A stretch of 64,000 bases of DNA. Source: Trichoplax sp. H2 (lineage: Eukaryota). Position 1 is the stretch's first letter. The number at the start of each line of letters is the position of its first letter. The stretch is taken from positions 186,001-250,000 of the forward strand of contig NOWV01000001.1 of NCBI GenBank assembly GCA_003344405.1, read 5' to 3'. The notes below the pieces were generated by a model. The model was not told the DNA's origin and did no database searches. It saw only the letters and a program-made list of their open reading frames with translations. Below are positions 1 to 61,897 of this stretch, piece after piece. Position numbers and translations under genes: made by a program.

Positions 1-2162
1 TAAGGATAAGAAATACCAATTTTATGCGATCTGCTCTGTCCGCTCTTTGCAGCATTAATGTAGTAAAATGTTAGATTAATACTTAGCACTGTGCGATTCA
101 ACTGAGATAATACTACGTAATTATTATCTAATCTATCTACAAACCTATCTATATGTATTTGATAAAAGAAATTTGGGGTGTATCATGATAAATAACGTAG
201 AAGTTGATATCAAGTTAGAATTAATCAAATTCGTGATGGGTCTAGCATAACTATAGCATTGCTAATTGACTTTTAATGGAAAAATTTTACGATTTGTAAG
301 AAATTCAATTCTTCCTAGCCCTTTGTATGCAGTGCTATAGAAAGGTGATCTCACTACTTTTATTATTGAATTTATGGAAATAAGTGGTGTTGACAGTTAT
401 TGCATAAAGGTGGTTAAGGCAAATTGTGTAAATGTAGTTATGATACATTACACATAATTATAATACGTATATCGTAAAGGCTATGCGTACTTCTATTTAG
501 TTCTTATTTTTGCCGATAAACTATTTTATAAGTAGCTGATTAATACTTGCAGATGGTTTCTTGCAGCTAATTTAATTCTTATCAAGCGCTATATCAGTAC
601 AGAAATGCTGCATATTTTAACCTCTGATAATGTTTGACAATCACATTAGGAGTAAATATTCTAATTTTTCCATCCAGCTCAAAGCTATGCGTTCGGAGTG
701 GGTTATTAGATCAATGTTGATGCAACTGATTGGCAGTTATCCCACTACAATATTTTAATTAGAATCGTGTTGCATTATTTTCTGCTTAAAAGTTCAGCAT
801 GGTATGCTACAATAACTTAAAAATTATTCATGGCAGTATTCATAGTGTGTACAGTGGGTGCTGGTACTAAGTACGTCTCTAGACCACAAAATAACAGTTT
901 ATCATGCAGTAATCGACTCAGTCTGTTTCATTCTAGTCGCATAATTGTATTCTATGTTCCTTTTTTAGCAGTGTAACTAGCATTTGCCAACGCACAGTAT
1001 AGTATAATGAAATCGATATTATAGATAACATATTAAATTAATATTTAAATTCAACTGAATTGTCAGGAATTGCTCATTGATTCACAGAGGAGGAAAAATC
1101 TTTTAATGAAAAGATTTCATTTAAGATAATAAACATATCCTGGTGACTAAAATAATCAATCGATCGCGGGATAGAAAAATTTAAAATATTTATCGGCATG
1201 TTTACATTTAATTATAGTAAAAATATCCGACGTTAAATTCTAATGTAGCTTGAGATAATGCCCTTAAAATTTTCATTAACTGATGTAATCATCGACATGC
1301 AATATATAAATAATAATAAAATACTGTAGTACAGCCTCAAAATTACATTCCTATACGATAATAAATCTACCTCATACATAGATATTTCTACTACATTTAT
1401 TACGCTAAGATTAGCTAACTATTTTAGGTTTGTTTATGAGTCAGTGATAAATTATACAGTAAAGTAAAAAGTGTCAATATATTACGCGAAGTCTAACGAG
1501 CGAGGGATCGACTAGTAATTTGGAACAATTGCATCATTTATCGTATCGGCCATTAGTAATTGAATGATCTTGTATCTACGATATTTATGTCGTACAAGGT
1601 GCCGGTATCCTCACTCAGGATTTTAATATTCGCTGATTAACTCAACTTTCGAGCATAAACTAAATTTAATAACCAATTCTCCTTATCAGTGAGTAGATCC
1701 AGCAATAGTTATTGGTGTTGAACCATATCTTTATTAGGGATTAAATACAGCGATAATCTGTTGTTAACACCATAATATTACTTTGTTATACGTGTACATG
1801 AACATGCATATGATTTCATTACCTAATGTCAAGTATTGTAAGATACGTTATCCATATTAATAGCAGTTTAAGCAGACTACAGTGGTATGAATACCTTTTT
1901 TTAAAACTACATTGTAGCCAGCTCTACGTAGTTGCAGTTTTTTTTTACCTCGTATTACAACTTAGAATGATATATATGGCAACTTTTATAACTACTGTAA
2001 TTAGTTAATTTGGAAGAGGAATGCTCTCATACTAAGTGTTAGATATCTAATATACCTGACTGTAAATATTAACGGCATAAATGTGTGCATATGTAACGTA
2101 TACAGGGGAAAAGAGTAGAGTACAATCAAAGTGTGAGCTATATTGTCCTAGTATCGATGATA

Positions 2163-2236
2163 TAAACTGTAACCATCAATTATGCATTTTGCCAACATCA
2201 AATGGAATTCAAATGCACAACTTCATTAGCAGTTTA
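2163..2236 (-). promoter_or_regulatory. SECIS element (type 2-like) in the 3' UTR of copy A
   Basis: Minus strand reads UAAACUG-cua-AUGAA-GUUGUGCAUUUG-AA-uuCCA-uuugaugu-UGG-CAAAAUGCAUAAU-UGAU-gguua-CAGUUUA. It has helix I, an AUGA/GA core, an ~11-12 bp helix II, apical AA and a mini-stem. Confidence 0.88.
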
Positions 2237-2313
2237 GTATTATCAGCACTTGGACATTTTAAGCTTTAGATAGCTATAACTAAGTTTTACCAGTTAATGC
2301 GGTCCTCCTTTGA

Positions 2314-5300
2314 TTAATGTTGAGTGAAATTAATGTTTGCTACGTTTGCTACAGTAAGCAATTTGTTTATCGGGGTGTGATCAAACGTTCCGATATCAGT
2401 ATGGAAGTATTTCAAGATATTACCTGAAAATAGTAGAAGGCAGGAAAGTAAATATCTACTTTTCAAGATTATAGAACTTTGATAATTAATTGATTTTAAA
2501 AACAAGAGTATTCTTAAAATTATGTTCGGATAATTAGAAATAATCTTTGAATAGAAAAGAGATTTATCGTATTTCAATAAATTCATAAAGCAATACTTAC
2601 CAGGTCCGACTACAAGTTGTCCACCTTGCTGCGTAACTTTACCTTGAAATCTCATCGATTTAATACCTCTCCATATCGACTTGGCTAGGCCTGATAATTC
2701 AGATGATTTGATATGTTCTGACCCTATTTCAAAGATTTTTATTTTTCAATTTTATGACCCATATCGAGTTACTCAAGGGCTACTAGCTACAAATTAATTG
2801 TTTGCTTTGCAATGTCATTACTTGGTGCTGCATGTGCAAGGGTTGTTGCCATGCCTAATTTTGAATAGATGGTCCTCTGTGGATCGCAGTACATATCATG
2901 GTTATAGCCAGTTTCCTGACGAAATTTCTAGTTATTCAAAAGAAGGGCCATAACGGATTATTTAATTTGAGCAGTTTTCGAATTACAAATATGAGTTATA
3001 TTTGTAGCATAGTAGGGAAATTATTTAAGAGGACGTTATTGGCTGGTCACCTTGATAAAGTTAGGCTTTCCACACCCAATTACTATAAGTCGAACGTTGG
3101 CTTCCTATAAAATTATTCAACAGTAATGATAGTAGCATAAATTAACCTTAAGAAAAGCGTAAGACCTCTTAGAATACTTATATACACAGCAAGATTTTAA
3201 TCGAAGAATTATATTCTAGAATGCAAGAATGAGCAACTAGTTTTTGAAAATATACTCATCAGGACTCCTTCTGCATAATATTATAACCTAAGCTTCTTGC
3301 GTTGAATTAATCGACTATGGAATCAAAACATTCGATACTCGTACACAATGATTATATTTCCGCATAGCATTTAAGGTAGTGATAAATTTAATATTAATAT
3401 GATAACTGATAGCTAGGGTATTTTATCGTTTCTCTCACTGGATATTATGGTAATTTATACTTATAAATACTGAATTTTTAACAATCTTTATCATTTACTA
3501 TCTTCATTAAATTGATTTATAGCTCACTAAGAGCATAATATACATTAGTAAATTTCTGTAGATAAAAATTTTGTGGATATATAATCTTAAGAAAATATAT
3601 AGAATATTTTGATGTGAGAGCTTGCATCATTCCACCACGAACTGAGTTATCCTGTATTGGTTTTACTAACCGCTAAAGATTCTTGCGGTATTTTGGCCAA
3701 ATCTATCCATAAAGTAGAAAGAAATGAAAATAAGATTTCAATATTATGATAATTACTGCACAACGTTTGTAAATAGTTTCGACCATTATGTACGATAATA
3801 ACAATTCATGAATATTTGATATCCATAATTCTTTAATAGTAATTAAAATACTTTGATAATGATTTTTGTACAGTAAGTACTCGATATTGATTACAGCTAA
3901 TTTAAAATTTTAACGTTGTAATGATTGCCATTTTAAAAAACAAATCAAAAGAAGTTGGATAGGAAATGCCCTGTTATTATTATATAGTATATAGGATCAA
4001 AAATTAATTAAGAGTGAAAGAAAATGTACAATAAATTATTAGCTAGATTCACACTTTAATTCATTTAATAGCATGTACGGTGTGCGCTAACTTAGAATTG
4101 TCATAGTATCAAAATATTACTCTAATCAATAAATTAATTTATGTCACCAACAATTTAATACATCTATATATACCCTACTACAAATAAATCTGCAACAGCA
4201 TATTAAAAGAGTATGCAGTAGGTTGAATTAACTCGTCCTAATTACGGACTATATATTCATAAGAACTTATTTACAAGGTTATTTATAGGGAGTACGGAAA
4301 GGTTAGAAAAATAATTTAGTTTAGATTCGTGCTATCTCATAGATTTACCTTCGACATATTCTTTACATACGTATCAGAGGAAATGCTTTCCACGATATTT
4401 GTGTTCATAAAGGAGTATAAATTATAAGAATTCTATCAATTTTTAGGATAGTTAAAGAATAATAACTAAACGAAAGTTTTAAATTAGCACAGTAAGATTA
4501 ATCCGCTGCTTTAAAATATATAGTGTGTCGTTAATTTACATTACTTTATAGAGTAATACTAATACTAAGAATAAGGTCATTACAGGACACTGTATTAGAC
4601 ATTTATGTCTAGAATGTTCTGATAAATATTGATTTGATTTTTGACGTAGCTTACGTGCTTATCATATTTTGTTCTTAAAAGATGTCATATAAGGAAAGGG
4701 ATGTAGTTAGTACCGTAAAATGTGATTCTATAGTGGTATAATTATAGAAGCTATCCGAAAGTGATCAAAACTGTATTTGAAATCGTAAAGAAGTCTAACT
4801 TCTACAGTAATAATTAATATGTTGCGCATAAGCCTTGTGCTTAGTCTTACAGTTCTAAACTAGAGATTACTATACAGATACTACTGCCAGCAGAAGTTAA
4901 ACTTAATGATAAAAATTCTTGACGGATATCATCGTCACGAAGTCAGTGGATCACGAAAGTTGATAGACGAGGAACTACAAAAAAATTAAGGCTGATACAG
5001 TATTTCCAATGCAATTTACATTCTATCGGAAGTTAATAGTGTATCCTATAATACCCCTAATCAGGCAAATATCGGTAATATTATCGGTATAGAGAATAGA
5101 ATTATCTTCAAACTTGGCGTATTCTTGTCTATCGTAAATAAATAGCGTATTCTACTGTACCTAATCAAGCAAATATCGATATACAGAACAGGGTTGTCTT
5201 CAGACTTGATATATTTTTGTCAAACTAAGTGAACTGGTTATGCCTTTAAGATTATAAATTTTAATTAGTATAATTGTCTCATCTGCAAGATTTGAAGCCT

Positions 5301-5938
5301 CAAGTGTTAGACTCATTGTCTATTTGCTGAAAGTAAACATTTTATCATTTTATAACTACCCTAGTTAATAATTATGATCGGCCAATGCTACAGATTATAT
5401 GCTTATTAATGGGGCAATTATTATTTTATTTTTCGGAAATTAGTGGTGTTCGCTAGACTCTATATATGATCTACGTATAGTGTATCTTTAACGGTTTAAA
5501 TCACGTCTGACGTTTATTTTAGACTAGAGAGAAGTGTAGAACCAGTTTACCAGCATCGTCACTGTCTACTTTAGTAGTAAGATACTAGATAGTGTATAAT
5601 GTATGACATAAAACAGAGTGCAAAATAGTTATATTGGATAAAATGGTATTTCGTGTTTCCTTTCAAAATTCAATTAGAGCGTATAGATAAGCAATCGTAA
5701 TTTCATATCTTTGTATAGGATGTCTAAAGAAAGATTAAAGCAACATTTAACTATCTTAAGAGTGTAATAAACGTACACGAACGAAAACGATGATGCTTAA
5801 CTGATCCCTATAAAGATCTCCAAATTTTAGAGTAGCACCATTTTCGTCAAACACTGGTAATCCATCAATTTTGGACCATTCGAGTTGTTTCTCGTCTGTC
5901 ACCTCAGCGGAAATTTGATTGGTGTCGACTCCTGCCAT
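2314..5938 (-). CDS. PRXL2C: AhpC/TSA thioredoxin-fold protein, PRXL2C/AAED1-like, selenocysteine-containing (copy A), 7 exons, ~207 aa
   Basis: Exons read manually, all GT-AG and in phase: 5938-5777, 4385-4349, 3702-3671, 3104-3051, 2927-2822, 2723-2601, 2423-2314. The joined protein contains IIVFVR-HFL*YVCKEYVEDLAKIP, NVRLIVIGC, YCDPQRTIYSKLGM, FQGKVTQQGGQLVVGPGN and FDHTPINKLL. These match AAED1/PRXL2C as I recall it (RHFLCYICKEYVEDLAKIP...QQGG..ILGPG). In-frame TGA at 4376-4374. Confidence 0.92.
5056..5221. repeat. Diverged ~100-bp-period tandem duplication in intron 1 of copy A
   Basis: cctaatcaggcaaatatcg...tatcttcaaacttggcgtattcttgtc at ~5056 recurs as cctaatcaagcaaatatcg...tgtcttcagacttgatatatttttgtc at ~5160. 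Confidence 0.6.
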
Positions 5939-7380
5939 TGCGGAAAGGCTGAAAATAGCCACACAATTTGATTTATTAACCTTGGGTCTACTCGTATATT
6001 GGACTGCAACTAATTAACGGATCAGTAATGCTGTCAAGTTGGTCCACTAAAGCTACACTAAACTCGTTTGGGTGCAACAAGTGGGGTGCGGGTACCTTGC
6101 CGACTACTCGTATATTATACGTGTAGTTCCTTGCTCTTTTCGCTTTATAAAATCCTATATGCGTTCAGTATGAGGTTGACAAGGGGCTACTTAAAAACCA
6201 GGAAGCTGAAATTGGCTTACCCGAATAGCTATCAATAGAACACCAACTGCGGGCATTCAGTTATTAACCTATTATGAGAATACAAGCACTAGATTATGCT
6301 CATACTAGAGGATTGTGATACAGTATACACTGTACTATATTTCAAGTTGAGAGATTTAATGCACTATGGACAAGTACGCTGGCCGTGTGGATGGACCATT
6401 GTATTTTTTCTTGGCACTGTATGAGAGATTTTTTCGGTCCTTAATTCCTTTCATAGACACCCTTATATTGGATGATTGCTAGAGGTACTGATTTCATGCT
6501 ATACAAGTAATACAACGGTTTCTTAGCATTCTTGAAAGGTTGTACATGGTAAATATTGCATGCATCTAACCAATTTACAGCTAAGCGCCTGGTTGTTAAA
6601 AAATTTACTCGTGACGTAAATCGTAAACCTACGACGAGATCGAAGGGAATAAAGTGAAAGGTTATCACTGGCTGGTGTGACTACTGTAGGACATAAGCGA
6701 GGGCACGTACTGTAATACAGATGATTGTAGGGAGGGTTTTAAATTACCTTCAGTTAAGCAATTTGTTGTACCCATAACGGGAAGAGGTAGCTAGCGTCTT
6801 TTACCTCAATTAATCGACTGTTAGCGAGAATGCTTAGGAGTGACCAAGGCTGATTTAAAAATTGTTGTTTTCACACATGTCCAAAAACCGGTGCAGTTGG
6901 ATTCACTTTTTACCGTCTAATAACTACTTACGTTTTAATCATTCTTTATTAGGAATTAAATGTAGCGACAAGCTACTGTACTTATGCAAGCTATAATGTT
7001 TTTTTGGCTTTTAAGCACACATAAAACGCAATTTTATTCTTATGCGCGTATATTAGATAATCAATGCAAAGCAATTGTACTAGGATTTTTCCTGACTATA
7101 TTTTAGATATACCACGTAGTGACGTTAATATCCTGTATATCTACATTTCAGCTAGGTCTAGAATGCTACAATTCATTTTTATCATATATTACAATGTAGA
7201 AGTATACAGGTATCAAACTTTATAAACATGGAAATTAAAACACAGAAGGGTACTTCGACTAAATATTAGCGATCTACTCTATTACTGCAAACATTAGTGT
7301 CGTAAATACTATATATTGAACGTATATGAGATGAAAAGTTGACCAAAAGCGCGAGTCATAGTGCCCAAGAATTGATAATA

Positions 7381-7457
7381 TAAACTACAGTAGTCATCGG
7401 TTATACATTTTGCCAATATCAAATGGATTTCAAATGTACAACTTCATTGGTAGTTTA
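7381..7457 (-). promoter_or_regulatory. SECIS element (type 2-like) in the 3' UTR of copy B
   Basis: Minus strand reads UAAACUAC-ca-AUGAA-GUUGUACAUUUG-AAA-uCCA-uuugauau-UGG-CAAAAUGUAUAAC-CGAU-gacuacu-GUAGUUUA. Same architecture and position as in copy A. Confidence 0.9.
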
Positions 7458-7536
7458 TCATTAACAACACCTGAGCGTCCGCTTTAGGCAACAATAATCA
7501 AGTGCTGTAAGAGCAGTAAACTCAGTCTTTGATCGA

Positions 7537-10500
7537 TTAATGTTTTTTAAATTCAACATTTGCTACATCGGCCATACTGAGTAATTTGTTAATTGGGGTG
7601 TGATCAAATGTACCGCCATCAATATGGAGGTATTTCAAAACATTACCTGAAATAGTAGAAAGATCCGCATCATGAACATAGCAATTTGTCAATTTTACTC
7701 TAAGATGATACATGATCGATACTATAGCTCACAATTAAAATTACGGTGGCATAGTTACGAACAATTGTTGAAAGAATTAATACAAATTCAACCTACCAGG
7801 TCCAACTATAAGTTGTCCACCTTGCTGCTTAACATCACCTTGAGAACTCATTGATTTCATAGTTCGCCATAAGGAATTTGCTAAGCCTGATGCAACAGAT
7901 GATCTGACATGTTCTGATCCTATTGTCAAGATCAATTTCTTATTCGTCTATTTTATAACCCATATCTATGCTATTAGGCTACTTAAGGTTTACTGGCTAT
8001 CAATTGATGGTTGACTTTGGTATTTTATTACCTGATGCTCCAGTAGAGAGAGTTCTTATCATGCCTAGTTTGGAATAGACGGTCGTCTGTGGATCGCTGT
8101 ACATATCATGCTGATAGCCAGTTACCTTACGAAAGTTCTAGTTATTGTAGAAAAAATACGTGATAGCTTATCAAATTTGAGCCGTTCGTGAACAATTTGT
8201 ACAAATTGAGTTACAGTATTACAAGAGCATAAGTTTAGAGGTGTTATTGATCAGTCACCTTGATGAAAGTGTGTTTGGCACATCCAATCACAGCAAGTCG
8301 AACGTTGGCTTTCTATAGTAATGATAATATAATCTTTAGAGAAGCGAAGTTTGTTGGAATGTTCATAGGTAGCACAAGGCTTTCATTGGAACAGTAGCTC
8401 ATGGTATGGATGAGGAAGAAGCAACTGTTTTACGTTCCCCACGCTGATTAGTACACACAATACCAATTTACAAGCAATCTTTCGATCAATTGGTGGATAG
8501 TATTATCAAAAACACTTTCGATCTATTTCATGATAATCTACTTGTATCATTCATTTGTGATAAATGTGTTTGTTAGTTAACTAATGACTAGGATAGTTAA
8601 TCATTTTCTCTTATGCAACACTATGATGGTTTATACTTGTAAACACTAAAGTGTTGTATTCATTTAATTATTAGAATACAGGACTCGCGTAATAGACTAG
8701 AAGCAAATTTTGTACCTATCAAATATAGAATTTCAGTCGATACATAATCGTAAGAATAAATCAAAAATATTCTAATCAAGTATTTACACTCTATTGCCAA
8801 TAACTGGATTATGCAATATTAGTTTTACTAACCGCTAAAGATTCTTGCGGTATTTTAGCCAAATCTATTAATAAAAAAGAAGAAATAAAAATGTGATTTT
8901 AAATACCAAGAGAACATTGCAGTGCATTTATGAATACAGTCTTTGCAATCACGTATAATAACTGTTATTGTTGAATACGAGTGTACTGTATATGTTTCTT
9001 CGACGACGTAAAAAATACCATGATTTCTATGCAATCATTGTTCATCATTGATGAAAATTAATTTAAAATTTAATGCTGTAAGAATTGATATTTTTTTAAA
9101 GACAAATTAAAGTTAACTAGGGGAACAAATGTGACGTTCCTTTTCTTATGATAAAGAATTTAAAAAAATGAATTAAGAAGAAGAAAAAATAATACGAATA
9201 TACGTTCAACTGTCAATGAGATCAATCAACAGCTAGACTTCACATTAATGAAATGCTGGTATAATGAATAATTAATGATCGTGATTAGTACTGTGTAACA
9301 TAATTTATAAAACGTTTGCTAAGTTGGGACGATTGTACCATCAGAATATAATTTGAATTAGTACTCATTGTTGTATAAATTAATTAAGCAACGTATCTCA
9401 CAAAAAGTGATGAGTAGACGCCTTATGAAGTTAAAAATGTATGTTTGTGAATGCATCAAGGCGTAATGTGAAAACATCGCAGCAATTACAATTGAGTAAA
9501 GACTAGAAAATGATTCATAATCAGAAAAACAATGATTCCTCTATTTTTATATCATTTCAAGATTTACCTTCGACATATTCTTTGCATATGTATCAGAGGA
9601 AATGCTATCCATGTTTTTTCATAGATATAGTCAAAAAGAAGTATATAGTTATAAAAGAAATTTTCAATCCAAAGTTCTGACATGTACAAAATTACATACA
9701 ACCAAATGAATACTTCAAGTTATTATATTATACTACAATATCTTTCCCATTTATCTTGCAGTACGTATTACAATTAGTTCCATTAACATTGATGTATTTG
9801 GTTTGTCGTTGGTTACATTACTGTACAGCACTTGAAAGGAAAGTACTAAGAATTTAGGAATAGTACAACGAGATAACTACTGTATATTCTTAAAGCTGTT
9901 TGTGCCTGAGGATATCCCGGTAGTGGTTAACCCTAACTGTTGATGGAATTCTTTCTAGGTATCCTCCATGCGTATAAGGTTTCATTATACTGTACCGCAA
10001 TATTATTATTTTATTAATGTACCGTAGAATATAGTGTACGTTGTATGATCGGTCTCTAGGTCAATAAGACTATCAAGGAAAAATATCGTAATTTTGCAGT
10101 GAAGAATTTTGAAAACCACAAGCACTCGTTCAACAATTATAATTCTTTATTAAGCGCCAACATGCTGCTGCACAGTATGCATAGTCCTGTTTTAACGATG
10201 AATGAATCAATCAATACCGTGCACGCCTGTCGTTCTAACCCATGCCTAAAAGTGTACAATAATAAGCTTATGTACACGTAATACTGTACAGTGTACATGA
10301 TATGCCTATTGGGTAGTAAAAGTATTCTTATTTTGGACTGGAAATGGCGATGTTGTCGATGGATGGGCGTACAGTCATGCAATAATGATCAGCAAATGCA
10401 TCGTTGTCTTGTAAAGAAAACAAAGCCGCTTTGTGCTTAATCATCCATCTCTTTTTCACATGATTTACTACGCATACCTACGATATACAGTCCTAATTAT

Positions 10501-10749
10501 TAATATTAAATTACTAGTTTATACTCAAAGAGGCTAAAAACGGCACTACTAATAGAAGGGTGGAAGTTGATCTCGGAATAAACTTACACGAACAAAAACG
10601 ATGATCGTTTTTTGATTCTTGTAAAGATCTCCAAAGTTGAGGGTAGCGCCATTTTCGTCAAATACTTGCAATCCATCCAGATCAGACCATTGCAATTCCT
10701 TCTCGCTCACGACATCAGTAGCTATCTGATTGGTGTCGACATCGGCCAT
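7537..10749 (-). CDS. PRXL2C: AhpC/TSA thioredoxin-fold protein, PRXL2C/AAED1-like, selenocysteine-containing (copy B), 7 exons, ~207 aa
   Basis: Exons 10749-10588, 9604-9568, 8864-8833, 8312-8259, 8137-8032, 7919-7797, 7646-7537. Exon lengths are identical to copy A (162/37/32/54/106/123/110). Motif HFL*YICKEYVEDLAKIP, with in-frame TGA at 9595-9593. Confidence 0.92.
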
Positions 10750-11119
10750 TGCTGAAAATAGCTCAAACTGAGCCCAGTTCGATGTATTCGACTTGAAATA
10801 ATTTCAATTTATCGATTGGATCGCTAACGCTTTACCCAATCGATGTCGTCAAAATAATTTCTTACGCCGGTAGCGGGGCGAGATCTTCAAATGATGAAAA
10901 CTTTGCCAGTATCGCTCAATATGCTAGGTCTTGTATGACAGGGTAGTGTCCAATATAGTAGCCCATGTGTATAGAGTACTGTAACAGGCCATTGCCATTG
11001 GCGTGCAAATGTATGGCTGTGTGGATGTCCAAATTAGTGTCACTCTCAATGGTAACGTCATCTCCATTTTCTTACCGCAATGGATGTTGGGATCATGATG
11101 GAGGTCAATCGAGGTGACC

Positions 11120-14011: not shown

Positions 14012-17000
14012 TTACACATAACTATCCGATTCATCATCTGAATCGGTATCATTAAAAGATGGAGTTGTTGCAGCTTTTCCATCCTTCTCTTTTTCAACTG
14101 TTTGCGTGAACGGTACTTTTCCCTTATCCATATATTCACTCCATACTTGTAATATTCTCTCTAAAATGATAATATGCTGTCTAAAATCTTGCGTTAATGA
14201 TTGCAATGGAATAGACCTATTTACTGACTTTGAATCAATACCATTGGTAGTATCTTTACTAGAACACATTAAAACTGGGCCAAAACAGATAGCCAAATTA
14301 TGAAAACTCATTTTATTACTATCCTCGAACTTTCCAACACGAACTAAATGGTCCAAGATGAATGATAATGTTGAACGATTTGGTTCAGGTAATGAGTTCA
14401 TTAAGTTTAAGATAGTCGCGTCGCAATCTTTACTCTCTAAAATACATGGATTATCAAATAAAGTAGGATACAATTCATTGGTTAACAACGGCTCTGGTAA
14501 TTCGCGTAAGTAATCTTTCAAGACACCAGTCAAAACATTAATATCTGGATATCGTTCAATATCACCTAAATTGACCGACATGGCATTAAATTCAAATTCT
14601 GTACGTAAAGTTTGCTTCCTTTTAGCTGATCCACATAAGCGGTATAAGCCAACAGTATCCATGCCACGCTCTTCAATAGCAGCTATACATTTTTGAACAA
14701 TTTGAGGTACTTGATTACCTTCACGTTGTGTTACCGCTGCTAAATCAACACCAAAAACTCCAGCAGTTCGTGCTGATGGGCGCCGCTGGAACGTTGATTC
14801 TTGTCCAACGAAATTAAATTTAGCATAGATGACACCGAAAGGCTTAGTATGTAATGCCATTTGATGATTAGGACCATAAGTATGGATCAATTTAGCAAAG
14901 TTCACATTGCCGCTTACAAACAAGGATTTATTATGTAATCTTGTACTTTTACTATTGCCAACAAAGCACTTAAATGAGACATATTGACAACAATCTAAAT
15001 CAATCTCGAACGATTCATCCCATTCGAATAGAGTGGTGCCACGCTTACTATTAGTTTTAGCTTGAATTTCACCATCTACTTCAATAATGCAATAGACATC
15101 ACGTTGTTTGCAATTATTATTATTACCATTATCACTTGATGTCATATCTTTACCACATAACAGATTGACACTTAAACGACCTGATAATAAGGCTTCTTTA
15201 CCATCCACTGATGGAGGGCTAACCCTTAATTCTTTGGCTTCACTAAAATGAGCAATAAAATCATGATCTAATTCATATTGTGTATAACTTGGACAGCGTT
15301 GCGATTTCTTATTACTTGAGGTTGTATTGCTATTACCAGACATGCCCAGCATACCAGAGACATCCAATATTTGCTTACGTTGCGAGGATTTCGGGCTAGC
15401 AAATAACTTCTTTTTACTATATGTCGATTTTGTCTTTGTCGATGATGGCATATTATCGGATGGCATACTGGATGCTTGGGCTGCAACTAATCCCATGCCA
15501 ACAATAGCTGAGAGCGATTTAGAACGATTACGTTTATTTGAGAACTTTTTCTTCCCTTTACCATTTAATACTGGTGTACCTACTGGTGGAGGGACACCTA
15601 GCAAATCAGTTGTATTTTTAAATCGAAATCTTTTCTTCTCCTTTTTCGCTAGATTAGCACGAGCTATACCAGGCGTTAATGTCATTTTTTTGGTATCTAA
15701 GACAGGCTTATCATTTTGACTATTGGGTATTTCATCATCGTCAGCGCTATAAGACCGTTCTCGTTGATCCGAAGATGGAGGATTTTCGATACTCATCGTT
15801 AAAGGAGATGGTACGCCAATAGGTGACGGGCTTGAGCGATTAGATGGTGGTGTTTCTAATACAGGTGTTGATGCTCCTGAATCAGTACAATCGCTATCGA
15901 TAGCGATGATAGGTAATGTAAGCTGTTTACGGATATTCAATTGCAATGACATTTTTTGAGCCAAGCTATTGGCCATTTTGCTGGAGTCATCTTCGTCTGA
16001 ACTAATCGAAGTATCTGGCCGCACTGAATCATCTGAACTTTGTATTGAACTATTATCAGCTTCAGATTGCGACGAAATAGTCATAACAATATCGTCATGA
16101 TCGCGTTCTGATGTTGATTCTGAGTTTTGTCGAATAACTTGTTGATCCGGTAATGTAGCAGCTGGTAGTATTGGCGATGAATGGCGGCGATCTTCATTAC
16201 ATGGTAGCGATAATAGCGAGTGAGCAATATTCTTGTCGGCTTGATTGATATCATCACCATGTCGACGTTGACTATCCGACTGACGGCTTCTCCAGGTTCG
16301 ATTACTTTTTGGTGATGGTATAGAATCTTGTTGAGTATCTGAATCTTCATGATTGGAATTAGGATAAGAATCGGAATTATAATTATAATTTTCACTGGTT
16401 GAATCGTAGGATTCGGTAGCTGAAAAATACGAACTATCGTTCCCTGTTTGATAAAAGCGAGTGTTAACAGGTGAGATCATTGGAGTACGATTACTAGAGT
16501 GATTTGTGCCACCATAATCGATGATAGAACCTTCATTTAATATTTCTAGCGATGATGGTATACCTTTTCTAGATACAGGGAATTGATCAGAGCTTCGCCG
16601 ATTATTTTTTGTACGCGATGGAGCCAAGAGTTGGTTTGTTGTTGAACGATGATTGGACATGGATTGATGAGAATTATTATGACTTGATAGAAATGGTTGC
16701 TGAGGATCAGAATGCCGATGTCGTTGTTGACGTGGATAATGATTATGATTGCTACCACTGTGATCTAATCCTTTCGATGATGATAATAATTGTTGCTGTT
16801 GATGATAACTTGTGTAGCGATTTGTTTCTAAATGCTGTGGGCGATTGATAAATTCAGTAGGCGAATTACGACATGATGTTGAAACTCGTCGTTTTAGTGT
16901 CAAGGATAATTTAGTTGGATTACGTAGTAAAACAACGACATCATCTAATGTCATGTCAGCAACACTGACATTATTAACATTGAGTAATTCATCGCCAATT

Positions 17001-17479
17001 TGAACTAAATTGTTCACATCGACAACACTACCTAGAGCAATTCTAGATACAAAGATTCCATCCAAACGATCGAATCCATCGCCATTACGGATATAAAAAC
17101 CAATGGATACACCGGGTGTTTTCATTAATTCTACCCTACTAATACTATATGCTCCACTCTCATCGCGGATATGAGTAACCGACGTAATGTTATATGAATG
17201 CTCAGCGGCGCTTTCTTGGCCATTTTCATGCAATCCTGGGTCCGCATGATGAAGTCGATTGATACTGTCATCGCTAATATCACTTGCACGTCTTTGCATA
17301 AATTTTTTAGCAATATTTTTCTTGATCAGTTGACTATATTGCTTTTTAATACCGTTGCTTTTGCGAGGATTAGAAGGGCTATTAACTAAATTAGGATTGT
17401 CTTGCGGCCATATTGCTTGATTATCATAAGTGTAGCCAGCTGGCACCGATTGTTGATTGACAAACTGTTTATCAGACAT
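14012..17479 (-). CDS. syd-1: PDZ-C2-RhoGAP protein, Syd-1/RhoGAP100F/SYDE family, 1155 aa, single coding exon
   Basis: N-terminal PDZ domain (VELMKTPGVSIGFYIRNGDG...GIFVSRIALGS...GDELLNVN). C2 domain (LSGRLSVNLLCG...DVYCIIEVD...FEWDESFEIDL). RhoGAP domain (VFGVDL...IVQKCIAAIEERG...GLYRLCGS...LKDYLRELPEPL...NKMSFHNLAICFGP). This domain order is diagnostic for invertebrate Syd-1. Confidence 0.9.
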   Translation of the reverse strand: MSDKQFVNQQSVPAGYTYDNQAIWPQDNPNLVNSPSNPRKSNGIKKQYSQLIKKNIAKKFMQRRASDISDDSINRLHHADPGLHENGQESAAEHSYNITSVTHIRDESGAYSISRVELMKTPGVSIGFYIRNGDGFDRLDGIFVSRIALGSVVDVNNLVQIGDELLNVNNVSVADMTLDDVVVLLRNPTKLSLTLKRRVSTSCRNSPTEFINRPQHLETNRYTSYHQQQQLLSSSKGLDHSGSNHNHYPRQQRHRHSDPQQPFLSSHNNSHQSMSNHRSTTNQLLAPSRTKNNRRSSDQFPVSRKGIPSSLEILNEGSIIDYGGTNHSSNRTPMISPVNTRFYQTGNDSSYFSATESYDSTSENYNYNSDSYPNSNHEDSDTQQDSIPSPKSNRTWRSRQSDSQRRHGDDINQADKNIAHSLLSLPCNEDRRHSSPILPAATLPDQQVIRQNSESTSERDHDDIVMTISSQSEADNSSIQSSDDSVRPDTSISSDEDDSSKMANSLAQKMSLQLNIRKQLTLPIIAIDSDCTDSGASTPVLETPPSNRSSPSPIGVPSPLTMSIENPPSSDQRERSYSADDDEIPNSQNDKPVLDTKKMTLTPGIARANLAKKEKKRFRFKNTTDLLGVPPPVGTPVLNGKGKKKFSNKRNRSKSLSAIVGMGLVAAQASSMPSDNMPSSTKTKSTYSKKKLFASPKSSQRKQILDVSGMLGMSGNSNTTSSNKKSQRCPSYTQYELDHDFIAHFSEAKELRVSPPSVDGKEALLSGRLSVNLLCGKDMTSSDNGNNNNCKQRDVYCIIEVDGEIQAKTNSKRGTTLFEWDESFEIDLDCCQYVSFKCFVGNSKSTRLHNKSLFVSGNVNFAKLIHTYGPNHQMALHTKPFGVIYAKFNFVGQESTFQRRPSARTAGVFGVDLAAVTQREGNQVPQIVQKCIAAIEERGMDTVGLYRLCGSAKRKQTLRTEFEFNAMSVNLGDIERYPDINVLTGVLKDYLRELPEPLLTNELYPTLFDNPCILESKDCDATILNLMNSLPEPNRSTLSFILDHLVRVGKFEDSNKMSFHNLAICFGPVLMCSSKDTTNGIDSKSVNRSIPLQSLTQDFRQHIIILERILQVWSEYMDKGKVPFTQTVEKEKDGKAATTPSFNDTDSDDESDSYV

Positions 17480-20400
17480 GATGTGATTTCGATTCAGTCT
17501 GCCTTCCTGACGAGTACTATTCTTAGCGATAGCCGATGGTTGAGAGGATATAGTGGATATTCTATCTATCCAACTCTCCGGTCACTCAAATCATTGCTTG
17601 AAATGAATCACTTGCTTTATATTTTTACGGGGTTGAGCTTTTTGACTTGTATTCTGAATATAGATAAATAAATCAATGGATCGATTAAATAAAGTCCGCT
17701 AACAACCTCAATAATATAGATTGAGTTACGTAAATTAAATATCATGGAGTGCTATTTATTCTACTAAAAGCTCGTGATCATAAATCGTTGTAATAAAAAA
17801 TATTCTGGTATATGTATGTAATGTAATTGAGTAAGAAAAAATTGGTATAAAATGAATTAAAAATCTCAGATTCTGTTATTATGTGATAATCTATCTTTAT
17901 CTTAAACGAATGCGAAACTCATATCGAAATTATTTCTTATTACATCTCTGCTTCGCTAAAATACTATTTTCGTAGAATTGAAAATAAAGCGAAAACATCA
18001 AGCCTTTATCATAAGACAACAATGTAATTGAAAAAAGGTTTACTATTATTTCTATCTGTTCCGGTAGAACTTCACAAAGAAATAGGCCTTCAATGTTGGA
18101 TAACGTCGGGAAGATGATGAACAAGATGGAATTTATTAAAAGTAGACAGTGAGGTTCTTTGACGTTATATCAACATAACTGTATGTCGATTAAATTAGAA
18201 TCTATAAATGAACTCGATACGAACGGAATAATTAACCTATAAGACAACAAGAAACTAGTAAGGAAGTTTTCAATCTTAATTAAATGTTCAGCACAGAATG
18301 GACCTATGAATAAATGCTGATAATAACGAAACGGAAATTAACCTTATTTTGTGTATAGTACGATCGCATAATTCTCGACGTACGCGTATTCTCTATTAAT
18401 TAAATCCTCATCATACGTAAAATATAAAGCATTGAAGAAAATGAACGGAAATTAAGTCCAAGTAAATGAGCTGTATATGAAGTAATTTTAATCAAAGTTT
18501 CCATGACATACTGTCTGTATAGGATATAGAATTATTGTTTATAAAAATTGAAGTAAAAATAGATGCATTAATTTTAATTGGGTAGCTAGACATTATTTTC
18601 AAATAATGTTACATTACCCATTGTGCCATAGAGTACTAGTAGCACCTGGATTAAGATGTAGCCAAATTATAAAAGTATAGTTGTTTTAATTCCATGGGTT
18701 TAAATTAAACTATTCAAAGCTATTTACTAGTTAAAGAATCTAATTATAAATATCCTATTCAGGTTGAAATCGTTTTACTTACAAGAGTATTAGCACTAGA
18801 GATCCTAGAGTCTCTAATTATCTTTCTTTTTAGCAATTTATGCCCTAGTTTAGGCATAGTCATAGCATTGTAGTGTAAATGGTGACAGAAAAACTTCCTA
18901 AACTAAAAAGGACTCCTGATCACTATCCTAATGTTTAGCCTATTCTATCGAAGCCAACCAAATTAATAACAGCTGTAGTGTAATTAAAGCAATTCACTGT
19001 ACACCATTACCTAGATTTTATTCAGTATTCAACTTTTTTTTTCCTATTATTCTCTCATTAAATGAAGTGAAACAGACTCTGATCTAGATTTTTTAATCCA
19101 ACTTCTACGGTACTAGACGTTATCACAGGACTATTCATCATATTTAAGATCATACTAATTTTACGTATAGGACATAATCTAAGCTAGCGGGAACCATGAC
19201 CATCAATGATCAATGAGAAATTAAGAAAGAAAATCTCATCAATACTAAACACCCGTAATTCATAAATTTTTGACCTTTATGAAGTCGCATTTTTAATCTG
19301 AATTGCTTAGATAATTTATGAGACCATATGCCCTTTAATTGATCTATCATTTCAAGATTGACTAGAAATGATTACAAGAAACGGGTATATTCATCTATCC
19401 TTTTTTCCCTTTAATTGCGCTATCACTGTCAAGATTATTACAGATACTAACTTGAAAATTCTCCATCGAAAATCTTTAAATTTTGACGCAAAGAGTTATC
19501 GCACTCCTTTACTATGTTTGCACTAAAACTATAAGATTGCAGTCACATCACAATGAAGAATACACCAGCAGCTTTTTAAATTATATTAAAGTTATTTTTT
19601 AGACTGCCTTTAGTGAATTGTATAGCTTGACAGGATAAGCTCTGTACGGAGAAATAACTCAATTAGATTTTTGCTAGCGACAGCGACACTAATTAATGGC
19701 TAACAGCAATAATAACGAGTCTGTATGAAACCGAAAAGCCAGAAAGTTAAAAAAATTGTTATTTTAATCTTTCCTAAATAGTACAATGACTATAGAGTCA
19801 ATGGAGGATTTTCGCTAATGACGACTAATTATTTCTTTCTATTACTTGAAGTAAAGTTTGTCAATAAATGACTTGTATTTGAAGAAGGGCAAATTAAAGT
19901 CATAAAATCATAAAACATCTATTTTAGAGTTATAGTAGCAAAAATATGCGAATTAGCAGCGTTGGAGATGAATTACTGTAGTACAGTCGGAATTAAACAA
20001 AAGCTCTTAACCGCATTTATTTTATGACATAAAAATGGGGTGTTAACTATTTCATGAGTCATAAAATTCTTCAACCAATACATAGTAAGTGAGAATATTC
20101 AAATTGAACTCAACCTACTCACTAATAGGCTAAGATAATATCCGATAGCAGCGATCGAAAGGGAAATTTACTATCATCATGACTTAACAGAATAATATCA
20201 TGTGATAGGCACCATCTTGGTGAAGCTCAATCCTAGGATACTATCAATTTTTACCGGAATTGTCAAGCATTTAACTGTAATTAACTACAGACTATTGCTA
20301 ATTGTATTGATAGAATGTGCTATATTGTACATTCTATTTATATCGATGAAATTCACATTATAAAATAGTAACACAAACCCGATCGATATGGCTACTTTGC

Positions 20401-60302: not shown

Positions 60303-61368
60303 GTTATCGTTTTAATGAATAAAGTTTTTATTTTTTTAATCGTATCCTCCGATACCGGTAGTAATTAAAATTAGATGATTTAAAGACAGGAATACACGTT
60401 CCACTAAGCGTAACTTAATGATAAACAGACCTATACTCATATTATAGAACTTGCGATATGTAACTGAAATTAAGTTCTTATGTCAATGAAAGACGTTGTA
60501 CGATGTATATTCGTTCTGCTTAATGTCAGCTATCTATGCACAATACGAAATAAGAATAACCCATGTTATAATAAATAATAACTATTATACTGTACAGTAA
60601 TTATTAGCATAAATGTAATTTTAGAAATTACTTTGTCTAGTGCATCCATTTTATGTAACGCCACACCATAACTATAAATTACTGTACTGTATTATCGAAT
60701 ATTCGAGGATCTGATCGCAGAGTTCAAGCTTAATAACTACTGGCTTTACTACAGACTGAGTACGGCTAATATGCAGTGTTGTAGACGTAAACGATGTCCA
60801 ACAGCTTATACCGAACTAGATACTGGAGTACAGTATATTACATCGTGACAGTTAGTATGTACTACTAGTACTGTATATTGTCATGGTAAAGTCTAATTTC
60901 GGAAACTTATCTAAGAAGGTGATTAATACTAACATCACCAAGTTCACTCGGGACTACGGACACTCTTTACATCTAAGAATAGTCCTTGGTGCTATACTAT
61001 ACATGCAATGCACTTGTTTAGGATCTCAATTACACTTTTAGTCAAAACATAATACACAATGTATTAAATAATTCGAAACCAGTCTGAAGTTGAGAATATT
61101 TACTTCGTAGATCATAAAGTACTAGAATACGATATACGAGGATTAACGTTAAATGTTGAAGATTCGAATACAACTTCTAAAGTTTATACAGTATTCCGTA
61201 GCAAGTCGATAAGATATCGTAATACAATACTAATATAATCGCAATTACAGTCAATCTTAAATGCTACGTGGCAATCATCTACAGTACTTCGAGCACTGGA
61301 GCAAAGAGAGCACATCTCACAAATAAACAATGTACAAGGTTTCGGATAAATTTTCTTTATAAATTTAT

Positions 61369-61384
61369 GGCTTTTAAAAAAGCC
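61369..61384 (-). promoter_or_regulatory. Replication-dependent histone 3' stem-loop
   Basis: Minus strand reads ccaac-GGCTTT-TTTA-AAAGCC-ataaa: a 6-bp stem with 4-nt loop, ~62 nt after the stop codon. A purine-rich AAAGAAAA (HDE-like) follows ~10 nt downstream. Confidence 0.9.
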
Positions 61385-61446
61385 GTTGGTAGACTCAAAT
61401 GCTAAACATTCGAATTATAGAGTAGTGGATTTAGTAGTCCATGAAT

Positions 61447-61821
61447 TTACTTGCTGCTGGTGTATTTGGTGACAGCTTTGGTACCTTCGCTGACGGCGTG
61501 CTTAGCCAATTCACCGGGCAAGAGAAGACGAACAGCGGTCTGGATTTCCCTGCTGGTAACGGTAGAACGCTTGTTGTATTGAGCCAAGCGGGAAGCTTCA
61601 TTGGCGATACGTTCGAAGATATCTTGAACGAAAGAGTTCATGATGCTCATGGCCTTGCTGGAGATTCCAGTGTCGGGGTGAACTTGTTTCAAAACTTTGT
61701 AGATGTAGATGGAATAGCTTTCCTTTCTTTTCTTTGCACGCTTCTTCTTTTCAGAAGCTGCGGCGGTGGCCTTGGCTTTTCCGGCCTTCTTTTCTCCCTT
61801 CTTGCTAGCTTTGGCAGGCAT
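61447..61821 (-). CDS. H2B: Histone H2B, intronless
   Basis: [90 protein letters not shown]. Confidence 0.99.
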
Positions 61822-61897
61822 GTTTCAAATGAATTACTTGGTGTGTTTATACTTCAATAGTCAAACAGACGAAGATGTGATTGGAAACTGCTCGCTG

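Follow-up and report, generated by a model that had tools for sequence, protein, structure and literature searches.

Two tandem PRXL2C/AAED1 genes with an in-frame TGA in Trichoplax sp. H2 are probable selenoprotein genes

Does an in-frame TGA in the middle of an otherwise intact gene mark a dead copy, an artefact of the gene model, or a codon for selenocysteine (Sec)? This question is raised twice by a stretch of 64,000 nucleotides (nt) from the placozoan Trichoplax sp. H2 (contig NOWV01000001.1, positions 186,001 to 250,000), which is called the window below and to which all positions refer. Its minus strand carries two tandem paralogs, copy A (10749-7537, upstream) and copy B (5938-2314, downstream). 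A preliminary description, made from the sequence alone, had claimed that both are functional selenoprotein genes. The results favor two separate, expressed, tandemly duplicated PRXL2C/AAED1 (= SELENOU2, Pfam AhpC-TSA_2) selenoprotein genes in this placozoan genome, and we assign a probability of about 85% to this explanation.

Each mRNA includes a 37-nt exon with the UGA at codon 58. According to the proposed mechanism, a selenocysteine insertion sequence (SECIS) in the 3′-untranslated region (3′-UTR) of each gene would bring in the factors for selenocysteine insertion, and the UGA would then be read as Sec. A thioredoxin-fold protein of about 23 kDa with a UxxC redox centre is predicted as the product, and Sec would take the place of the attacking Cys, which is the N-terminal one in the CxxC of vertebrate PRXL2C. 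We infer that Sec is inserted into both proteins and that both are redox-active.

Gene structure and splicing of the two paralogs

The models of both genes were built from coordinates and comprise the following features:

Copy A, 7537 to 10749, minus strand, start codon to stop: exons 10749-10588, 9604-9568, 8864-8833, 8312-8259, 8137-8032, 7919-7797 and 7646-7537.
Copy B, 2314 to 5938, minus strand, start codon to stop: exons 5938-5777, 4385-4349, 3702-3671, 3104-3051, 2927-2822, 2723-2601 and 2423-2314.
In-frame TGA of copy A, 9595 to 9593, minus strand: codon 58, HFL-U-YIC, in exon 9604-9568.
In-frame TGA of copy B, 4376 to 4374, minus strand: codon 58, HFL-U-YVC, in exon 4385-4349.

The seven exons have the same lengths in both copies (162, 37, 32, 54, 106, 123 and 110 nt), and the coding length is 624 nt per copy, i.e., 207 codons and the stop. 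All 12 introns, six per copy, start with GT and end with AG. The only internal stop of each copy is the TGA at codon 58, within the 37-nt exon 2, and no frameshift, second stop or lost splice site was found in copy A or in copy B. The in-frame TGA codons had been claimed before, and their coordinates and motifs were reproduced; likewise, the complete 207-codon models with GT-AG introns bore out the claim that the exons downstream of the TGA are intact and in phase in both copies.

The splicing of the two genes was verified with assembled contigs from three RNA runs (X10, X12 and X14). A fourth run, X1, served as a control; it had an even depth of about 100 across introns and exons, it thus behaves like DNA, and none of the joints of copy A or copy B was present in it. 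In copy A every one of the six introns was seen as a joint in RNA contigs. The joints 7643/7794, 7918/8031, 8137/8259 and 8312/8833-8834 (introns 3-6) were found in all three RNA runs, and the joints 8864/9568 and 9604/10588 (introns 2 and 1) in X14 only. In copy B the joints 2419/2597, 2722/2821 and 2927/3051 (introns 4-6) were again present in three of three RNA runs, while the joint 4385/5777 (intron 1), which connects exon 1 to the 37-nt exon, was found in X10 and X12. In addition, X10 contained loose contig ends at 4349 and 9568 that continue into the first letters of exon 3, and a loose end at 8866 that continues into the last letters of exon 2. It was confirmed that the UGA-bearing 37-nt exon is part of the spliced RNA of both copies, and the RNA junction check that the preliminary description had proposed for this exon was therefore positive. 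RNA contigs were unbroken from exon 7 through the hairpins described below in both copies, and the contig of copy B spanned exons 7-5 as well.

In three of three RNA runs an additional joint, 3103/8832, connected exon 4 of copy B to exon 3 of copy A. Such a joint would be expected if the locus were only one gene, with a single transcript made of the upstream exons 1-3 and the downstream exons 4-7, the other exons being relics. The published exonerate model for Trichoplax adhaerens has this very exon chain (Mariotti 2013, PMC3753652, supplement S6). However, exon 3 differs between copies A and B at only one of 32 nt, and an X10 contig that comes from exon 2 of copy B (4349) reads the same A-like exon 3. 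These A-like letters cannot stem from copy A, because exon 3 of copy A lies upstream, so that a linear transcript is impossible. Therefore, the joint is explained by a strain difference in exon 3 of copy B, a single-nucleotide polymorphism, together with placement of the contigs at the better match. Furthermore, RNA contigs also contain exons 4-7 of copy A and exons 1-2 of copy B in spliced form, no exon is damaged in either copy, and a separate SECIS-like element follows each gene. A single gene is thus very unlikely. A hybrid A/B mRNA was also considered as the source of this joint and was rejected, the joint being judged to be a mapping effect of the near-identical exon 3; a real inter-paralog read-through mRNA for a hybrid selenoprotein is even less likely than the far-reaching proposal on sub-functionalised placozoan paralogs that is given further below.

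Three further observations concern the transcripts of the locus. Intron 6 of copy B (177 nt) has no in-frame stop, so that an open frame of 143 amino acids runs from exon 6 through this intron into exon 7 (2314-2745, minus strand); splicing still removes the intron in all three RNA runs. In X14 an extra joint in 5723-5802 (minus strand) omits 78 nt and leads from the interior of exon 1 of copy B into intron 1. The respective contig stays in the intron to position 5442, and it is probably an unproductive minor isoform. Lastly, RNA contigs extend for about 0.9-1 kb past the stop and the hairpin of copy A (6488-7537, minus strand), which could mean that copy A has a long 3′-UTR or that the space between the genes gives rise to a non-coding transcript of its own. 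This transcribed stretch has no convincing open reading frame (ORF), and an ORF search of the region between the genes (5940-7540) did not yield a convincing frame either.

Family membership and the residue at the TGA position

A search with exon 6 matched four proteins, TRIADDRAFT_58025 and TRIADDRAFT_58024 of T. adhaerens and two proteins of Trichoplax sp. H2 that are named "Thioredoxin-like protein AAED1." Exon 1 was an exact match to an sp. H2 protein, and the T. adhaerens protein differed by one residue. The domain PF13911 (AhpC-TSA_2) is precomputed on all four annotated placozoan models. With single-exon translations, exon 5 of both copies matched PF13911 with E-values of 2.8e-4 and 9.5e-6, which is under the 27-bit cutoff for these fragments of 35 amino acids each, and the other six of eight translations (exons 1, 6 and 7 of both copies) had no Pfam match.

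For full-length comparisons the spliced models were aligned to fetched homolog sequences. The named relatives were mollusc and vertebrate "peroxiredoxin-like 2C" proteins. Both models were 47-53% identical to the frog and paddlefish peroxiredoxin-like 2C over about 176-194 residues, and the bit scores against proteins of this name were 173-187. Judged by bit scores, the closest named relatives appear to be PRXL2C, not PRXL2A or PRXL2B.

The TGA had been claimed to occupy the place of a Cys in vertebrate PRXL2C/AAED1, and in the alignments it indeed coincides with the first Cys of the CxxC motif. Among 30 non-placozoan homologs, a count that leaves out the four placozoan models, 15 have the first Cys of CxxC in this column, including all seven vertebrate proteins, and the other 15, all from molluscs, have Asp. 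In a larger set of 149 library representatives the column is occupied by Cys in 116 cases (104 with a full CxxC) and by another residue in 10 cases, and 23 sequences do not cover the site. The context of the redox box, FVRHFL-C-xx-C-KEYVEDLA, is conserved, and the window encodes FVRHFL-U-Y(I/V)-C-KEYVEDLA.

In typical peroxiredoxins (AhpC/Prx, PF00578) the peroxidatic Cys resides in a PxxxT/SxxC motif. This motif was not found at U58, which is preceded by the residues IIVFVRHFL, with neither Pro nor Thr/Ser in register. A precomputed PF00578 match was present on some of the homologs only. By their sequences, both proteins are "AhpC-like" in name and not typical peroxiredoxins.

Two observations were made on the homologs themselves. 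Eleven of the 15 Asp forms of molluscs have DxxT and thus no Cys at all, and the Asp-bearing mollusc homologs seem to be members of the PRXL2C family, paralogs or lineages, that have lost redox function. Several of the library representatives start a few residues past the CxxC column; they could be fragments, or they could be Sec forms from other organisms with gene calls that start after the UGA.

It had been claimed that standard gene predictors would mis-predict genes of this kind, and the current annotation agrees with this claim. None of the four public Trichoplax protein models has the TGA exon in its proper frame, and the catalytic UxxC exon is absent from all of them. Spurious exons take its place in two models, a third reads it in a different frame, and the fourth lacks exons 2-3; this last model has 184 amino acids and connects exon 1 to exon 4 without a change of frame. 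Correct models of the locus would yield two Sec-containing PRXL2C proteins.

Coding constraint and SECIS-like hairpins

The two copies share 79% of their nucleotides and 71% of their amino acids (147 of 207). The differences are distributed over the first, second and third codon positions as 40, 27 and 63. The ratio of non-synonymous to synonymous substitution rates (dN/dS, Nei-Gojobori) was 0.32 overall and 0.22 for codons 1-57. Downstream of the TGA (codons 59-207), where 105 of 149 amino acids are identical, it was 0.37 with a bootstrap range of 0.23-0.61, at a dS of 0.47; a value of about 1 in this part had been named beforehand as speaking against functional genes. The exons are 74-97% identical, with the highest values for exon 2 (95%) and exon 3 (97%), and the introns are 49-72% identical over aligned pairs, in agreement with the claim that the introns have diverged.

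Downstream of each gene a hairpin is present that resembles a SECIS:

SECIS-like element of copy A, 7380 to 7458, minus strand: 9-bp helix I, AUGA at 7447-7444, 11-bp helix II, apical AA, 3-bp mini-stem, 3′ GA.
SECIS-like element of copy B, 2163 to 2236, minus strand: 7-bp helix I, AUGA at 2226-2223, 12-bp helix II, apical AA, 3-bp mini-stem, 3′ GA.

Helix I starts 78 nt (copy A) and 77 nt (copy B) past the stop, and the AUGA core lies 89 and 87 nt past the stop, respectively. When the AUGA was held unpaired, folding yielded helix I, an internal loop with the AUGA and the 3′ GA, helix II and an apical AA loop in both copies, and the predicted geometry of both hairpins is that of a form-2 SECIS (AUGA_AA_GA). 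The hairpin core is 84% identical between the copies vs. 63% in the flanking UTR. RNAalifold kept an 11-bp helix II and the 3-bp apical mini-stem, with one compensatory A-U/G-C change and one G-C/G-U change. Both strands of the 64 kb were also scanned with a SECIS-shape pattern (ATGA, a helix of at least 9-11 bp, AA at 10-13 nt, and a 3′ GA). Exactly two sites were found in the window, and these were the two hairpins; thirty dinucleotide shuffles gave 0.07-0.63 matches per window, depending on the stringency. In contrast to these features, unconstrained folding of 101-nt pieces of the 3′-UTRs revealed an unremarkable stability (z = -0.9 and -1.0). Therefore, thermodynamic stability alone fails to single out the hairpins, and it is the motif geometry together with the conservation that does so. 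For the claim that a SECIS is located about 80 nt past each stop there are conserved SECIS-shaped hairpins with a compensatory pair change on the one side, and a negative Rfam result, given below, on the other. At position 2207, in the apical loop of the hairpin of copy B, all four runs differ from the window and match the loop of copy A.

Several points weigh against two functional selenoprotein genes. Assembled contigs lose rare isoforms and give no quantification. The joints of copy B to its own exon 3 were seen only indirectly: the sole trace of the junction of exons 2 and 3 is the X10 loose end at 4349, and the joint of exons 3 and 4 was placed on the near-identical exon 3 of copy A. The dN/dS values stem from two sequences only, and the constraint can thus not be assigned to each copy separately. 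In the run X12 a conserved Gly of copy B is changed to Asp (G120D, non-synonymous, position 2854); copy B has two further coding variants in the RNA runs and copy A has one, all of them synonymous. Finally, Rfam cmscan at E ≤ 10 did not report a SECIS family for 2000-11000, 7380-7540 or 2150-2316, a weak test because the E-values are multiplied by 4227 families, and in the E-value mode these regions yielded only weak noise from snoRNA, miRNA and long non-coding RNA families.

The points on dN/dS, G120D (in one run) and Rfam would also fit to an explanation in which one or both copies are expressed pseudogenes or decaying duplicates. In this case the copies would have inherited the TGA as a nonsense codon, ribosomes would terminate at codon 58, and the mRNAs would be subject to nonsense-mediated decay; a TGA 150 codons before the stop does resemble a nonsense mutation. 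However, the dN/dS of 0.37 past the TGA is seen at a dS of 0.47, and not one frameshift, second stop or lost splice site has accumulated. Moreover, the TGA falls exactly on the column of the catalytic Cys, exons 2 and 3 are the best conserved of all, and both copies retain a SECIS-shaped hairpin, in which one base pair shows a compensatory change. Decay of one or both copies is therefore regarded as improbable.

Alternatively, the UGA could be read as Cys or Trp by near-cognate readthrough, or the functional protein could be made from an isoform without exons 2-3. The joining of exon 1 to exon 4 is in frame and is used by the one public model mentioned above, and the Asp in place of the first Cys in the 15 mollusc homologs indicates that a redox-dead form of the family exists. 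In contrast, none of the joints listed for the three RNA runs bypasses the TGA exon, although rare isoforms may escape the contigs, and the exons that would be skipped are those most conserved between the copies. In addition, about 540 nt of mRNA separate the UGA from the SECIS-shaped element, which is a usual spacing. Of all alternatives weighed here, readthrough or exon skipping seems the least probable. Taken together, the interpretation of the preliminary description is supported by the sequence and by the transcripts, and two separate genes for putative selenoproteins are the best explanation for the locus.

Other features of the window and comparison with known systems

Two further features were noticed in the remainder of the window. 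In the gathering mode of Rfam the whole window yielded only a histone 3′-UTR stem-loop (61345-61389, minus strand, 41 bits). It lies just downstream of an ORF of 125 amino acids (61447-61824, minus strand), which is probably a replication-dependent histone gene. At 14012-17581 (minus strand) a single open frame of 1189 amino acids encodes PDZ, C2_SYDE and RhoGAP domains and resembles a RhoGAP gene of the SYDE type that consists of one long exon. No tRNA was found in the 64 kb window.

The preliminary description had cautioned that the novelty might be low, and this turned out to be justified. The Sec-containing SelU2/"AhpC" locus of Trichoplax was already published in 2012-2013, and it is not new as a kind. 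The accessible part of Jiang 2012 (PMC3473315) gives 28 selenoproteins for T. adhaerens, including SPS and one Sec-containing SelU2. In the accessible part of Mariotti 2013 (PMC3753652), supplement S6 lists the T. adhaerens locus as one "AhpC" selenoprotein with the Selenoprofiles label "selenocysteine," and the SECIS downstream of the counterpart of copy B has the SECISearch3 grade "A." The exonerate model given there has exons of 78, 37, 32, 54, 109, 123 and 98 nt. It shares the exons of 37, 32, 54 and 123 nt with the window locus and, like it, resides on the minus strand, spans about 8.3 kb and contains the motif LUYICKEYVEDLA, so that the published SelU2/AhpC locus and the window locus are one and the same, seen in sister strains or species. 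The residues of the published model stem from copy A in exons 1-3 and from copy B in exons 4-7.

Both papers, in the parts that are accessible, report one gene. In contrast, two complete genes are present here, each with a TGA exon and a SECIS-like element of its own and each spliced separately in RNA, and this is what the present analysis adds. It follows that details of the public protein models, and of the published model with a single gene, are incorrect. The placozoan selenoproteome would gain one gene, and the locus would provide a record of the Sec state in the SELENOU2 branch, in which all vertebrates have Cys; the knowledge of how selenoproteins work is unchanged. According to the accessible part of a survey of 2026 (PMC13134290), PRXL2C equals SELENOU2, and the Sec-encoding SELENOU genes of its own data set all belong to the SELENOU1 branch. 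A literature search yielded nothing further on Sec forms of AAED1/peroxiredoxin-like 2C or on Trichoplax SELENOU. A more far-reaching proposal would be that placozoans are the only animals known with Sec in the PRXL2C/SELENOU2 lineage, that they have it twice, as independently functional, sub-functionalised paralogs, and that the published gene is a chimera of both; as a whole, this proposal is rather unlikely.

Selenoproteins of related design are known from other lineages than the placozoan one. According to the accessible part of PMC3753652, AhpC occurs as a UXXC selenoprotein in protists and basal metazoans and has CXXC in vertebrates. The AphC-like/AhpC selenoproteins of sponges, choanoflagellates and protists likewise combine a thioredoxin-fold UxxC with a eukaryotic SECIS (PMC3473315; PMC3753652, accessible parts), and according to the same parts the AhpC-like candidate of Monosiga was found through a homolog of C9orf21 (= PRXL2C). 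In sponges, two copies of the AphC-like genes are also arranged in tandem, but these genes have two or five exons, and a GUGA core is found in many of their SECIS elements (PMC3473315, accessible part). The Trichoplax copies of the window have seven exons and an AUGA core.

The nearest solved structure is that of PRXL2B, the prostamide/prostaglandin F synthase (PDB 9us9), which is matched by the Lottia homolog with E = 4.9e-8 over residues 16-206, and because of this match a thioredoxin-like fold is predicted for the placozoan proteins. PRXL2B is a distant paralog, with 36 bits for the Lottia homolog vs. 170-190 bits for PRXL2C proteins. Vertebrate PRXL2C/AAED1/SELENOU2 has the same AhpC-TSA_2 domain and the same context, (H/N)FLCYTCKEYVED, and it differs from the placozoan genes in that it has Cys where these have TGA.

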